This document shows positions 8,955 to 47,407 of a DNA stretch of 64,000 nt, one piece after another. The translations under genes and the position numbers were made by a program. The stretch is from Gammaproteobacteria bacterium (GTDB taxonomy: Bacteria > Pseudomonadota > Gammaproteobacteria > GCA-001735895). Each line of letters opens with the position of its first letter. Position 1 is the first letter of the stretch. The notes under the pieces are model-generated. The model saw only the letters and a program-made list of their open reading frames with translations, had not been told where the DNA came from and did no database searches. The stretch spans positions 8,462-72,461 of the forward strand of contig JALSKD010000183.1 of assembly GCA_026989015.1 (NCBI GenBank), written 5' to 3'.

Positions 8955-9644
8955 TCAGTTCTGGTGCGCCATCATCCCCATGCCGGCGCCACCGAAGATC
9001 TGCATCAGGCCGTAGGCGACCAGCAGTCCACCCAGCAGGTAACGCAACCAGCGCTGTTGAAGCCACAGCCGCAGCTGTTGCGAGAAATGGCCGATCAGCA
9101 TCAGCGTCGGCAGGGTGCCGAGACCAAAGGCGAGCATGGTCAGTGCGGCCGCGGGCGCGGAAGTCTGGGTGACCGCCAGTGCCAGCGCGGAATACACCAG
9201 ACCGCAGGGCAGCCAGCCCCAGATCAGGCCCAGCTTCCAGGCGGCCAGCGGATCGCGGGCGGGCAGGTACTTGCGGCCAAGGGGCTCGATGTGCTTCCAC
9301 AGGTGGCTACCGGCGCGTTCAAGAAAGCCGAGGCTGTTGAATACCTGGCTGATGTAGATGCCCAGCAGGATGAAGAATACGCCGGAGATTTTCATCGATA
9401 CCGCATGAGGGTCCGGCAGCCGGTTCATCAGCTGGCTGGTGAACAGGCCGGCGAGCAGGCCAATCGACGCGTAGGAAGTGATGCGGCCCAGGTTGTAACC
9501 GAGCTGGATGGCGAATGGGGATGCCGGCCGGCGTCCTGAGAAATCGGCATTCAGCGTACTGACGATGCCACCGCACATGCCGATGCAGTGCGTGGAGCCG
9601 ATCAACCCCATCAGCAGCGCCGAGAGCAGGGTGGCAGTGAGCAT
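8955..9644 (-). CDS. TauE/SafE- or DsbD_2-like integral membrane protein at the end of the cco accessory operon
   Basis: Multi-TM protein with the HCIGMCGG motif near the N-terminus. It directly follows the ccoH-like gene on the same strand. Confidence 0.6.
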   Translation of the reverse strand: MLTATLLSALLMGLIGSTHCIGMCGGIVSTLNADFSGRRPASPFAIQLGYNLGRITSYASIGLLAGLFTSQLMNRLPDPHAVSMKISGVFFILLGIYISQVFNSLGFLERAGSHLWKHIEPLGRKYLPARDPLAAWKLGLIWGWLPCGLVYSALALAVTQTSAPAAALTMLAFGLGTLPTLMLIGHFSQQLRLWLQQRWLRYLLGGLLVAYGLMQIFGGAGMGMMAHQN

Positions 9645-9647
9645 GGT

Positions 9648-10175
9648 TCAGCGTGGGCTGAGTTCGATCTCGATCAGTGGCTGGTCGGCGCCGGTGATGA
9701 AGCTCTGCTTGAGCCGCCAGTCCTGCCCGGCCTGCAGTTGCAGGGTCCAGCGGCCTTCACCGATCGGCGGACGCAGGTAGCCGGCAAAGGTCAGCGGATC
9801 CTGTGCAGAACGGCTCAGCGTGGTTTCCTGGTCCCGGCCGGGGATGGTGCGGTGCATCAGACGCAGGGCCAGTTCCGCGTTGTCCGGCAGGGGGCGTTCG
9901 GACGACAGGCGTACCTGGACCTCGCCGCTGCCGGCATCGACACGCACCTGGGCCAACAGACCCAGCTCTCCGGCGCGGCGGTCGCGGTCGATCACCCGGT
10001 TGATCTGCAATCCCTGCTTGTAGTAGTCATCCTCGACCAGCCCATCGCTGGTGGATGCGGCGATGTATACCGTGGTCAGGCCGGCCACCACGGCGACTGC
10101 GGGGAAGAAGATGACCATCCACACCATCGGGTTGCGGTACCAGCGGTCGTCTTTTCCGTTCATCGCTCCGGCCAT
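9648..10175 (-). CDS. ccoH: FixH/CcoH family cbb3 oxidase assembly protein
   Basis: N-terminal RWYRNPMVWMVIFFPAVAVVAGL membrane anchor. Position immediately after ccoG. Confidence 0.8.
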   Translation of the reverse strand: MAGAMNGKDDRWYRNPMVWMVIFFPAVAVVAGLTTVYIAASTSDGLVEDDYYKQGLQINRVIDRDRRAGELGLLAQVRVDAGSGEVQVRLSSERPLPDNAELALRLMHRTIPGRDQETTLSRSAQDPLTFAGYLRPPIGEGRWTLQLQAGQDWRLKQSFITGADQPLIEIELSPR

Positions 10176-25744: not shown

Positions 25745-25771
25745 TCAAGCCACCGGCAGCTCCGCCGATAA
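25745..25771 (+). promoter_or_regulatory. weaker upstream sigma-28-like promoter copy
   Basis: TCAAGCCA-N11-GCCGATAA. The -10 is an exact consensus and the -35 matches 4/8. It shares GGCTCAAG...GCCG(A/T)TAACCC with the downstream promoter. Confidence 0.35.
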
Positions 25772-25809
25772 CCCTGTTGCGGGAAGGGTTGGCCCCGGCG
25801 AAAAAAGGC

Positions 25810-25836
25810 TCAAGTTTTTCATCGCCAGGCCGTTAA
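25810..25836 (+). promoter_or_regulatory. sigma-28 (FliA) promoter of fliC
   Basis: TCAAGTTT-N11-GCCGTTAA against consensus TAAAGTTT-N11-GCCGATAA, about 95 nt upstream of the fliC ATG. Confidence 0.7.
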
Positions 25837-25930: not shown

Positions 25931-27445
25931 ATGCCACAGTTCATCAACACCAATGCCTACTCGCTGAATGCGCAGAGGAACCTGAATACTTCCCAGAGTT
26001 CCCTGGCGACATCACTGCAGCGTCTGTCCTCCGGTCTTCGCATCAACTCCGCCCGCGACGACGCGGCCGGTCTGGCGATTTCCGACCGACTGACTTCCCA
26101 GATCCGCGGCCTCAACCAGGCCGTGCGCAACGCCAACGACGGCATTTCGCTGGCCCAGGTCGCGGAAGGCGCGTTGCAGGAATCCACCAACATCCTGCAA
26201 CGGATGCGCGAGCTGTCCATCCAGTCCGCCAACGGTTCCAACTCCGACTCGGACCGCCAGGCCCTGCAGGCCGAGGTTTCCCAGCTGCAGGCGGAGCTGA
26301 CCCGTATCGCCGACACCACCGCCTTCGGTGGACGCAAGCTGTTCGACGGCACCTTCGGCCAGGCCCAGTTCCAGGTCGGCGCCGAAGCCAATCAGACCAT
26401 CGCCTTCGCATTGAAGGACACCGACGCCACGCAGATCGGTGTTTATCGTGCGGATCTGGATTCCGCTACAGCAAACAGCGGTCTGGGCCGGGCCATTGCC
26501 GCAGCAGCGAACACTGCTGGTGCCAACTCCGTCGCTGCCGGTACTCTGGACATCACTGGAGAGGGCTCGGCCACGGTCAATGTCGCGGCCGCTTCTTCCG
26601 CTCGTGAAGTGGCTTCGCTGGTCAATGCGGAATCCTCCACCACCGGTGTGACGGCCGATGCGCGCACCGTCGCCCAGCTGGGCAATGTGACCACCGCCGG
26701 CAACCTCAGTTTCACGCTGACCGCGGATTCGGGCTCTACCACCAACTCGGTGACCATCAGCGCCACCGTTACTTCCACCAGTGACCTGACCGCGCTGGCC
26801 AATGCCATCAATGCCGAGTCCGGCAGCACCGGCATCCAGGCCACCATCGACAATTCCGGCGCCTCCATCTCGCTGATCAGCGAGGCGGGTGATGACATCC
26901 TGATTGAAGGTTTCGTCAACAGCGGTGGCGGAAACATGACGGTAACCAGTCGCAACTATGACAATACCACTTCGGGTGATGCCATTTTGCTGACTGGCGA
27001 CGGTGCAGCGGCTTCCACCGACTCCACCCGGGTGATTGGCGAGGTACAGCTCTCCAGCACCAATGCCTTCTCGGTGACCGCCAGTGATGCATCACTGAAC
27101 GATGTCACCACGGCCGAAACCGGTTCCCTGGCCAGCGCCGCCGACGTGGACATCTCCACCGTCGCCGGCTCCCAGTCCGCCATCGGCATCATCGACGGCG
27201 CGCTGAACCAGATCGACTCGCTGCGTGCCGATCTGGGTGCGGTGCAGAACCGTCTGGCCTCGACCATCTCCAACCTGCAGAACGTGGCCGAGAATGTATC
27301 CTCCGCCCGTTCGCAGATCCGCGACGCGGACTTCGCCAAGGAGACGGCCGAGCTGACCCGCAACCAGATTCTGCAGCAGGCCGGCATCGCGATGCTGTCG
27401 CAGGCCAACGCCCAGCCGCAGAATGTGCTCTCCCTGCTGCAGTAA
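25931..27445 (+). CDS. fliC: flagellin (504 aa)
   Basis: Conserved N-terminal [19 protein letters not shown] and C-terminal [37 protein letters not shown]. The central domain is Thr/Ser/Ala-rich. Confidence 0.96.
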
Positions 27446-45326: not shown

Positions 45327-46484
45327 TCAGCCGTTGGGATTGTGGCACAGCACCGCGCTGTTGGTTTCGCCTTCCACCGCCATGCGGTCGAGCTGGTCGA
45401 GCACATCGGTGCTGGCCTGCTCCATCTTCGCCAACTCGCGCAACACGGCTTCGGTATCCCCGGCGGCATGCGCCTGCAGCGCGGCGTGGCCGGCGCGGTG
45501 GACCTCGATGTGGGGCGCTTCCACCTCGCGGTAGCCGCTCAGGCGCGAGAAGCAGTCCTTGCCGTCGCCCTCGTAATACCATTTGCCCAGGCGGCAGTCG
45601 GTGTGCCCGGCGAAATCGTCGATGGCCTTGTCCGAATGGCCCATCAGCACCCGGTAGATCTCGAACTTGTAGACCAGGTGGTCGATCTTGGCCAGTTCCA
45701 CGAAGCCGCGCAAGGCACTGGCGGCGATCGCGCCCTCGGTGCGTTTCGACAGATCGGCCGCGCCGAGGATGCTTTCGCTGGCCTTGCCGCCGACCTCGGC
45801 CAGTCTGCGGGACTGATCGGCCATCTCCGACATCTTGTCGGTGGTCTCCTTGGTGCCGGACTGGATCTGCTGCACCTCGTTGGTGATCTCCTCGGTGGCT
45901 TCCTGGGTGCGGCTGGAGAGGCCGCGCACCTCGTCGGCGACCACCGCGAAACCGCGCCCGTGTTCGCCGGCGCGGGCGGCTTCGATGGCGGCATTGAGGG
46001 CCAGCAGATTGGTCTGTTCCGAGATGCCCTTGATCAGCGTGACCACCTGATCGATGGCCGCCACGCGGTCGTTGAGCTGTTCGACATTGCTCACCGTCTG
46101 CTGAATGGTATCCACCACGCCATTGAGGCTGCTCACCAGTTGGCGGGTTCCCTGGTTGGCCTGGATCGATACATCGGCGGCTTCGATGGCGGTGTTCTTC
46201 TCCTGTTGCAGGAAGGTCGACAGCTTGGAAAAGGATTGCTGCATCTGCAGCAGGCTGGTGCCGAAGGCGTCGAAATTCTCGAACAGGCCGTCCTTCAGCC
46301 GGTTGCTCTGGCGCAGGCCGGCGATCTGCTGCTCGCAGTCCGCCAGTTGTTCATCGCGCTGGCGCAGCTGCTGTTGCAGCTGTTGAACCTGTTGCGCGAG
46401 TGTTTCGTTTTCCCTTTGTACAGCCTCCATCCGGTTCTTGTTCTTGAGAAAATCCAACATGTTACGGAGCCTTTTGTCTGTCAT
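45327..46484 (-). CDS. soluble methyl-accepting chemotaxis protein with C-terminal CZB (chemoreceptor zinc-binding) domain
   Basis: No TM segments. Signalling hairpin [35 protein letters not shown] motifs [11 protein letters not shown] and HIEVH. Neither ATG 46484 nor 46460 has a strong RBS; 46460 follows an AAAGG. Confidence 0.85.
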
Positions 46485-46503
46485 TCATGAAAGCAGGTAG
46501 CGT

Positions 46504-46788
46504 TATTAACCCGGCAGGCATCTCCATCGTGTTCAGCCCGCTCGCGCTTGTTCGCGGCAAGGCATCGGTGCGCCGCTGCAGTCATTCTGCAGCAAGTGCC
46601 GATAACGCCGTCCGCGAGCGAGCGCGTGCGGGCCTCGCTCTTTTGTTTCAACAGGTTAGGGGCTTCAAGAATGAACCGGCTCGGTGTTGCGGCGCTTGCC
46701 AAGGGAACGACCCTTGCCTGCGCACCGCGCCTTGATCCGGACCATTCTTGAAGCCCTGAACACGATGGAGATGCTTGCCGGGTTAATA
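46504..46788. repeat. 285-bp TA-flanked inverted-repeat element (MITE-like and/or structured RNA leader)
   Basis: 33-bp arms at 46504-46536 and 46756-46788 are complementary at 32/33 positions (G/T at 46517/46775), and each begins TA-TTAACCCGG. A second stem pairs 46660-46679 with 46737-46756 (14 bp, a 2x2 loop, then 4 bp). Internal hairpins lie at 46561-46609 (around CTGCAG-TCATT-CTGCAG), 46616-46640 followed by TTTTGTTT, and 46692-46723. Confidence 0.6.
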
Positions 46789-46790
46789 GT

Positions 46791-46817
46791 GTAACGGCTT
46801 GCGCGGTAATTTCTTGA
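46791..46817 (-). promoter_or_regulatory. sigma-28-type promoter reading toward the CZB chemoreceptor, abutting the inverted-repeat element
   Basis: The minus strand reads TCAAGAAA-N11-GCCGTTAC. The -10 matches consensus 6/8, and the TCAAG -35 start and GCCGTTA -10 match the fliC promoter of this window (TCAAGTTT-N11-GCCGTTAA). Confidence 0.5.
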
Positions 46818-46857: not shown

Positions 46858-46886
46858 TCGGCCTGACCGATGGGGCAGGGTATAAT
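46858..46886 (+). promoter_or_regulatory. candidate sigma-70 promoter of ispF
   Basis: Perfect TATAAT at 46881-46886 with a weak -35 (TCGGCC) at 17-bp spacing. GGAGG RBS 5 nt before the ispF ATG. Confidence 0.4.
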
Positions 46887-46915: not shown

Positions 46916-47407
46916 ATGCCTCCTTCTTTCCGTATCGGTCACGGCTTCGATGTACATGCCTTCTGCCCCGGCGACGCGCTGGTGTTGGGCGGTGTGCGGA
47001 TCCCCTTCGATCGCGCCTTTGCCGCCCATTCCGATGGCGATGTGCTGATCCATGCGCTGGTCGATGCCCTGCTGGGGGCTCTTGCCGAAGGCGACATCGG
47101 GCAACTGTTTCCGGACAGTGATGAGCGGCACCGCAACCGCGACAGCCGCGAATTTCTGCGTGAGGCGGCGTCCCTGATGCGCCACCGGGGGTATCGGCTG
47201 GGCAATGCCGATGTCACGATCATCGCCCAGGCGCCGAAGATGGCGTCTCATCTGCCGGCGATGCGTGCCCACCTGGCCGAGGATCTGGCCTGTGAAACCG
47301 CCCGCATCAGCGTCAAGGCCACCACCACCGAGGGGCTGGGCTTCACCGGCCGTGGCGAGGGCATCGCGGTGCAGGCCGTGGTGCTGCTGGAGGTGTCCGG
47401 TGACTGA
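46916..47407 (+). CDS. ispF: 2-C-methyl-D-erythritol 2,4-cyclodiphosphate synthase
   Basis: [11 protein letters not shown]...[11 protein letters not shown]...[10 protein letters not shown]...[18 protein letters not shown]. Confidence 0.95.

Follow-up and report, generated by a model that had tools for sequence, protein, structure and literature searches.

This locus raises the question of why a long structured non-coding segment stands exactly between a flagellar-type promoter and the zinc-sensing chemoreceptor gene behind it, and whether this segment is a mobile element or a regulatory leader of the chemoreceptor mRNA. We examined it within a window of 64,000 nucleotides (the whole stretch of DNA analysed here) and compared it with contigs of relatives and with genome, metagenome, plasmid and viral collections. 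The segment is very probably a non-autonomous transposon (MITE) of a previously undescribed family, which inserted at a TA dinucleotide just past a sigma-28 promoter. This reading is based on the terminal repeats, the TA duplication relative to empty sites, the lack of coding capacity and the copies present at unrelated loci. No description of the family was found in the searchable literature, ISfinder lying outside that search. The features concerned are the following, in window coordinates.

45327-46460, minus strand: chemoreceptor gene (MCPsignal and CZB domains), 377 aa, conserved ATG at 46460
46504-46536, no strand: left terminal inverted repeat, flanking TA at 46504-46505
46536-46633, no strand: internal hairpin 1, long and imperfect, with stems that covary between copies
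46634-46659, no strand: T-rich single-stranded linker of 26 nt that joins hairpins 1 and 2
46660-46755, no strand: internal hairpin 2, with a basal stem fully compensated between copies
46756-46788, no strand: right terminal inverted repeat, flanking TA at 46787-46788
46791-46817, minus strand: sigma-28 (FliA)-type promoter of the chemoreceptor gene, outside the element and intact
46916-47407, plus strand: ispF, divergent neighbour, to the right of the element

The TA-flanked inverted repeats described in the original prediction were recovered as stated there: two arms of 33 nt, complementary at 32/33 positions (97%) and with 219 nt between them, each start with TA-TTAACCCGG, and the arm sequence recurred in none of 100 dinucleotide-preserving shuffles. 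The terminal inverted repeats are thus 31 bp long, or 33 with the flanking TA, and the element measures 281 bp, or 285 bp with the TA counted on both sides. Their outer 15 nt, TATTAACCCGGCA[G/A]G, are kept in every copy of the window-type subfamily, the ends of which read TATTAACCCGGCA...TGCCGGGTTAATA; the outer ~15 bp are the conserved part of the repeats and the likely transposase site.

A single strand of the element folds into a three-way junction, composed of the terminal stem and two hairpins. The second long-range stem proposed earlier is present, at 46655-46682 with 46734-46761 (82% complementary); in place of the three local hairpins that had been placed inside the arms, the interior is better seen as a pair of long imperfect hairpins (46536-46633 and 46660-46755) with the T-rich linker. 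The loop of hairpin 1, GAATGAC, is kept in most copies, those of a sister subfamily (see below) included. The linker carries TTTCAACAGGTTA (46646-46658), which by eye agrees with 8/9 specified positions of the IHF consensus, and both full window-type copies have the IHF-consensus-like TTTCAA-N4-TTR in this linker; the sister subfamily does not have it. The apical 65 nt of hairpin 2 correspond to 46677-46741, and this apex is also recognisable in elements of Azotobacter, Pseudomonas and Halomonas.

The element has no coding capacity: its six-frame translation gave no match among 5.8 billion proteins, and between the two full copies there are two single-base indels, each cancelling the offset of the other, at which any shared reading frame would break. 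No transposase appeared in the top 25 families listed by a Pfam scan of the 76 ORFs of the window. Signals for transcription were also sought inside the element. An intrinsic terminator consists of a short GC-rich hairpin with a T run directly after it, and the hairpin at 46616-46640 is terminator-like. This hairpin competes with hairpin 1 and is not conserved in the second full copy, found in relative L018; the T run begins 7 nt past the long hairpin 1, and the terminator scan called no intrinsic terminator inside the element, all of which speaks against a terminator here. The promoter scan found no outward sigma-70 promoter in the window copy. Two other candidates in hairpin 2 were dropped, a sigma-54 promoter because its GG/GC spacing is wrong and it is unconserved, and a sigma-28 -35 box (TTCAAGAAT) because it is unconserved in L018. 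Elements of the type known as Tn3-derived TIMEs have 38-bp repeats beginning with GGGG and a 5-bp duplication; here the flanks have TA alone in common and no 5-bp direct repeat is present, which does not fit such an origin.

The sigma-28-like promoter that had been noticed just outside the right arm is equally real. On the minus strand, its -35 box TCAAGAAA (46817-46810) and its -10 box GCCGTTAC (46798-46791) are separated by an 11-nt spacer, and the pattern TCAAG-N14-GCCGWTA is matched three times in the window where 0.36 matches would be expected; the remaining two are upstream of the flagellin gene. The promoter is kept in all seven orthologous spacers between ispF and the chemoreceptor (MCP) gene, and in relative L018 a perfect-consensus sigma-28 promoter of the same form, TAAAGTAT-N11-GCCGATAA, lies upstream of flgM. 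In view of the flagellin-upstream matches and the perfect flgM promoter, the sigma-28 assignment of the chemoreceptor promoter is well founded. A gap of 2 nt separates the -10 box from the element on its downstream side, and the chemoreceptor coding sequence is intact. The distance from the left arm to the start codon is 43 nt and not the 20 nt first given, the start being the conserved ATG at 46460 (MLDFLK...); the first in-frame ATG upstream, at 46484, is unconserved in relatives, and the database protein has 377 aa and the orthologues 375-378 aa. The two matches near the flagellin gene (25931-27445) stand in tandem within 25745-25835, as TCAAG-N14-GCCGATA at 25745 and TCAAG-N14-GCCGTTA at 25810.

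To reconstruct the state of the site before the insertion, we compared the orthologous spacers in seven contigs of relatives (L004, L005, L006, L010, L011, L012 and L013), which have MCP identities of 78-85%. Between called genes, the ispF-MCP spacer is 135-203 bp long in these relatives, versus 455 bp in the window. The element is absent from 7/7 orthologous spacers, and one TA stands at the site: the closest relatives read GCCGTTACAC-TA-TCGC, while the window reads GCCGTTACAC-TA-[281 bp]-TA-ACGC. On this comparison, the pattern of filled and empty sites is that of an insertion at TA, in the target context Y-TA-R, with duplication of the TA; the insertion is recent and lineage-specific, in one lineage of an uncultured Thiohalobacter-like gammaproteobacterium. 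The original prediction had proposed a search for other copies and for empty sites in relatives, and both were found.

The element is present at the locus in three independent assemblies, namely the ENA source contig, a Logan contig with an ispF identical to that of the window, and a JGI contig with a chemoreceptor 98% identical. Contigs of five independent assemblies (L001, L003, L012, L017 and L020, each at position 1) stop inside copies of the element, 18-127 nt deep, which fits a repeat or palindrome that breaks assemblies, and copy number in metagenome bins is therefore probably underestimated. These contig ends mark the element as hard to assemble, and might be taken to mean that it is itself an artefact, for instance a chimeric palindrome produced by a metagenome assembler; this is vanishingly unlikely, given the identical sequence in the independent ENA, Logan and JGI assemblies and the homologues in complete plasmid records of cultured bacteria.

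The arm 23-mer had no exact match in 185,579 species-representative genomes, and an arm 20-mer gave in the JGI metagenomes three chance matches alone (L007-L009), all in one unrelated repeat. Comparison of the window copy with plasmids and phages by blastn returned no match, and a second copy was seen neither in the 64-kb window nor among ~265 kb of related DNA. A diverged copy, 10 kb distant, did turn up in L011 and L012 when the flanks of the relatives were searched locally by blastn, and a scan for a third locus with a degenerate pattern, derived from the window and diverged copies, identified L017, a Thiohalobacter sp. MAG contig that starts inside a partial copy with 96% identity over 127 nt and an unrelated flank. 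The full diverged copy, at 9432-9716 of L018 (GCA_054041015.1), is exactly 285 nt long with TA at both ends, has arms of 35 nt that are 94% complementary, and is 69% identical to the window copy. One of its sides abuts a Sel1-repeat gene without its first 27 codons (flanks 9366-9431 and 9717-10004), and the other lies upstream of the flgM sigma-28 promoter, with 7 nt between the element and the -35 box. The window and relative L023 have an intact Sel1 gene of 118-119 aa that adjoins a CarS-like gene, and the synteny of L018 with both stops exactly at the element. Since the Sel1 gene is intact in the window and in another relative and 5'-deleted in L018, the L018 copy is, on sequence grounds, the mark of a rearrangement breakpoint, which suggests recombination between copies or a transposase-mediated rearrangement. 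Copies are thus found at unrelated loci, three of them in three related genomes, besides at least six copies of the sister subfamily. Some matches were set aside as chance: those in Bacillales to the degenerate repeat pattern lie inside a conserved coding gene, and those of a hairpin-2 20-mer in viral contigs lie inside phage coding sequence. The 15-nt terminus had 44 matches in viral contigs, and the single one with a candidate inverted partner is inside a 637-aa ORF and is not an IS.

The sister subfamily came from a blastn comparison of the L018 copy with plasmids, in which the apex of hairpin 2 was matched in Azotobacter chroococcum pAcX50f, at a locus occupied by a 269-bp TA-flanked element of the same architecture. 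Similar TA-flanked elements of 267-269 bp are carried by Azotobacter, Pseudomonas and Halomonas plasmids or replicons, with copies in the P. aeruginosa PA83 megaplasmid, a Halomonas sp. PA16-9 replicon (two copies) and a second A. chroococcum plasmid (truncated). Their interiors align with the window element over its whole length, apart from a T-rich linker insertion of ~14-19 nt that they do not have, whereas the terminal repeats are unrelated, TA-GGGYCTGTTGACG... in the sister elements versus TA-TTAACCCGGCA... in the window. The flanks fit Y-TA...TA-R at 12/12 ends of the six full copies, and the single known end of L017 (TA then A) is compatible with this. The family spans Thiohalobacter-like, Azotobacter, Pseudomonas and Halomonas replicons, and its subfamilies have the interior structure in common and not the terminal repeats, the reverse of the usual MITE pattern, which merits a dedicated survey. 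The sister elements have no feature in the PLSDB gene tables, which cover protein-coding and resistance genes only; the Azotobacter element had no match in E. coli genomes, and a literature search with the sister terminus gave unrelated papers only. The PA83 copy (L027 1502-1770) fills the spacer between acyl-CoA dehydrogenase and CaiB/BaiF CoA-transferase genes of the same strand, and from this arrangement it is probably co-transcribed, in the orientation opposite to the window's. In A. chroococcum pAcX50e (L031 2504-2560) there is a remnant in which the terminal repeat is joined straight to the linker, hairpin 2 being deleted.

A scan of viral contigs with the sister terminus revealed a further MITE copy (L032) and an 862-bp IS (L038 7983-8844). 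The latter has sister-subfamily termini and C-TA...TA-G flanks, and encodes a 249-aa transposase with DUF4096 and DDE_Tnp_1 domains, of the IS4/IS5 type; in L037, a second transposase of the DUF4096/DDE_Tnp_1 type adjoins a sister terminus. Genome and metagenome scans for an autonomous element with TTAACCCGGCA termini gave none, returning known copies or chance matches only. In two A. chroococcum plasmids (L026 3212-4398; L029 324-1459) the sister MITE adjoins an element of ~1.19 kb with 28-nt inverted ends, the two having a CTAG in common. In strain HR1, this neighbour is annotated as an IS630-family transposase, and its termini differ from those of the MITE.

The enzyme that mobilises the window element has to be considered in the light of these findings. 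The original prediction had proposed an IS630/Tc1-type MITE, of which the MITE part is upheld, the element being absent at seven orthologous TA sites and having copies elsewhere, while the IS630/Tc1 assignment is not: as judged from the sequences at hand, IS630 is not established as the parent. Descent from IS630/Tc1-mariner, with an IS630-family transposase as the mobilising enzyme, would account for the TA flanks and the single TA at the empty sites. C-TA-G is the classical IS630 target, and two sister-subfamily copies are in C-TA-G; an annotated IS630-family transposase adjoins the A. chroococcum HR1 copy, and RUP provides the precedent of a TA-targeting MITE mobilised by IS630 (PMC2229807). 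We nevertheless consider this origin doubtful, since the neighbouring Azotobacter IS630-like element has different termini (TA-GTGTCTCAACAC vs TA-GGGTCTGTTGAC in the MITE), the element that does have the sister termini encodes an IS5-family DUF4096/DDE_Tnp_1 transposase, and the collections searched contained no IS of any family with window-type termini. In addition, an IS427-group (IS5-family) element of Pseudomonas is reported to duplicate TA (PMC4133298). As the IS427 group of IS5 also duplicates TA, and the sole partner element identified is of the IS5 family, TA duplication does not identify IS630 here, which corrects the assumption that it points to this family. By analogy with the sister subfamily, an IS5-family enzyme (IS427-like, TA-duplicating) is more likely than IS630 to mobilise the window element.

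We then considered the fold of the element. The plus-strand region 46500-46792 has a predicted energy of -196.7 kcal/mol (z = -16 vs shuffles), and the minus-strand region 46440-46800 one of -185.4 kcal/mol (z = -11 vs shuffles). It had been seen as a complication that G-U pairs favoured plus-strand RNA, the strand opposite to the chemoreceptor mRNA, but the folds of the window copy have 8 G-U pairs on the plus strand and 7 on the minus strand, and the second copy favours the other strand, so that the complication carries no weight. In the window orientation, the energies are -193.5 kcal/mol for the window copy and -178.6 kcal/mol for the L018 copy, and in the opposite orientation -176.4 and -192.8 kcal/mol, respectively, so that the plus strand is favoured by 17 kcal/mol in the window and the other strand by 14 kcal/mol in L018. 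This reversal of the favoured strand from one copy to the other gives no support to strand-specific RNA selection, and a palindrome at the DNA level explains the data no less well than an RNA does.

Identity between the window and L018 copies is unevenly distributed: it is 93-100% in the outer 15 nt of the arms, 61% in their inner part, 56% in hairpin 1, 63% in the linker and 43-47% in the basal stem of hairpin 2, versus 94% in the apical 65 nt of this hairpin. A covariation test, which had also been proposed, did find compensatory changes. When the structure of the window copy is applied to L018, 95/117 pairs are canonical, and of the 26 pairs changed on both sides 21 are still paired; in controls with the 3' partner slid by 1-3 columns, 37-58 pairs form and 0-12 doubly changed pairs are kept. 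RNAalifold on the two full copies gave 24/94 compensated pairs, and the consensus structure of six copies, drawn from four genera, comprises 98 pairs, 53 of them with both-sided changes. Template switching, which corrects quasi-palindromes, can maintain pairing in DNA palindromes in the absence of selection, and such palindrome maintenance may also have produced this covariation, which comes from six sequences. The search of Rfam 15, likewise proposed, matched no family: the window copy had no match at E<=1, the sister copies had none at E<=0.1, and the L018 copy gave far-sub-threshold hairpin matches only (19-27 bits vs thresholds of 100-197).

These results bear on the alternative in which the interior is a functional structured module, be it a platform of folded single-stranded DNA or RNA, or a site for protein binding, captured by different repeats, with the element as a selected regulator of the chemoreceptor mRNA. 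Several observations argue for it, and all of them concern the interior: the three-helix architecture is maintained in the six copies of four genera through the both-sided changes in more than half of the pairs, the doubly changed pairs of the Thiohalobacter-type copies retain their pairing far above the slid controls, and the apex of hairpin 2, by far better conserved than the 43-63% of the rest, is recognisable in elements with unrelated terminal repeats. Moreover, 2/3 of the Thiohalobacter-type loci are <=10 nt from sigma-28 promoters, but both promoter-adjacent cases came from a flagellar-region query, which is an ascertainment bias. Against a functional module also stand the flip of the favoured strand, the opposite co-transcription orientations in the window and in the P. 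aeruginosa plasmid, the copy located at a break in coding sequence, the lack of an Rfam family, the lack of a promoter in the window copy and of a conserved terminator-like hairpin in the second one, and the capacity of template switching to keep pairing without selection. We therefore judge this alternative quite improbable. The selected cis-regulatory leader or small RNA of the original prediction is disfavoured in particular by the lineage-specific insertion, by the other contexts and orientations found elsewhere, and by a predicted fold that does not touch the ribosome-binding site (see below).

A small chance can also be given to a broader version, in which the two-hairpin interior is a conserved portable module, acquired by unrelated repeats and movable by unrelated transposases, that is kept as an aid to transposition or as a host leader. 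Its location beside the chemoreceptor and flgM promoters would then point to a possible co-option into the sigma-28 flagellar regulon of the Thiohalobacter-like lineage. If this were true, the fold might draw the two ends close to each other, or serve as a single-strand substrate or a platform for host factors, or might alternatively give host genes a stabilising or processing leader. The preferred reading remains that of a MITE. Against it count the missing second copy in the window and in the ~265 kb of related DNA, the lack of an autonomous partner with window-type termini in the scans and, unusual for a passive MITE, repeats that have diverged further between subfamilies than the interior.

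Among known systems, the closest functional parallel may be that of the Correia elements (CREE/NEMIS) of Neisseria. These are small non-coding elements with terminal inverted repeats, often located between promoter and gene and co-transcribed, in which the paired repeats are a substrate of RNase III and a central IHF site is present (PMC2649163; PMC2229807); forms of 107 and 155 bp are described (PMC2229807). The window element similarly has a long terminal stem and, from its sequence, a candidate IHF-consensus-like site in the central linker, and its geometry would allow co-transcription with the downstream gene. In contrast to the Correia elements, it has, at 285 bp, about double their length, contains two additional internal hairpins, has no sequence similarity to them, is low-copy as far as seen, and has no outward promoter found by the scan. 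With RUP of Streptococcus pneumoniae and other TA-targeting MITEs of bacteria the element has in common the insertion at TA and repeats that are presumably recognised in trans by a transposase encoded elsewhere (PMC2229807), but the RUP repeats are common to IS630-Spn1, whereas those of the sister subfamily are common to an IS5-family element. IS5-family elements of the IS427 group, such as ISPsp10, likewise duplicate TA (PMC4133298), and the L038 IS has the termini and the Y-TA...TA-R flanks of the sister MITEs; the window element differs from this IS in being non-coding, in its termini (TTAACCCGGCA... vs GGGTCTGTTGACG...) and in an unrelated interior. Its nearest likeness is to the 267-269-bp sister elements, with a homologous two-hairpin interior, the three-way junction, TA flanks and a similar length, from which it is set apart by the terminal repeats and the linker insertion.

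The insertion is a clean natural case of a MITE that landed right on the predicted start of transcription of a chemoreceptor gene in the flagellar regulon, and its consequences for the transcript can be predicted. In sigma-28 promoters, transcription starts ~7-8 nt past the -10 box. From this geometry, transcription from the intact promoter would start at ~46783-46784, ~5 nt inside the right repeat, and the leader would be ~325 nt long instead of ~45 nt; the original prediction of a sigma-28 transcript that carries nearly the whole element as its leader is geometrically sound. The element portion of this leader is expected to fold by itself, with the interior as two hairpins and the 5' end of the mRNA paired with the left repeat in a ~28-bp helix. 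The claim that this would clamp the 5' end beside the ribosome-binding site overstated their proximity: the Shine-Dalgarno/AUG region, 43 nt further on, would be as accessible as before, the -16 to +5 region around the AUG having a predicted mean unpaired probability of 0.49 with and without the element. In the model, the element thus behaves as a self-contained module that leaves translation initiation unoccluded. Since the predicted accessibility is unchanged, an effect, if there is one, is expected to concern the stability or processing of the mRNA and not the initiation of translation, either through a protected, paired 5' end or through RNase III cleavage of the long duplex, as proposed for Correia elements. 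The transcription start, the processing of the leader and any effect on expression are predictions of this model. With both promoter and coding sequence intact and a leader ~7x longer, the locus offers a ready test of a large self-folding leader on a sigma-28 transcript.

Independently of the element, leaders in this clade differ in length: those of the closest relatives, L004 and L005, contain ~20-45 nt past the -10 box an extra stretch of ~20 nt that includes a small hairpin (ATGCC-CCGAGA-GGCAT), and this stretch is missing in the window, L010 and L013. On the other side of the element, a TATAAT box at 46881-46886, which precedes ispF by ~30 nt, is also kept in the orthologous spacers of the relatives; it is a likely promoter of ispF and, at ~95 nt from the element, would be unaffected by the insertion.
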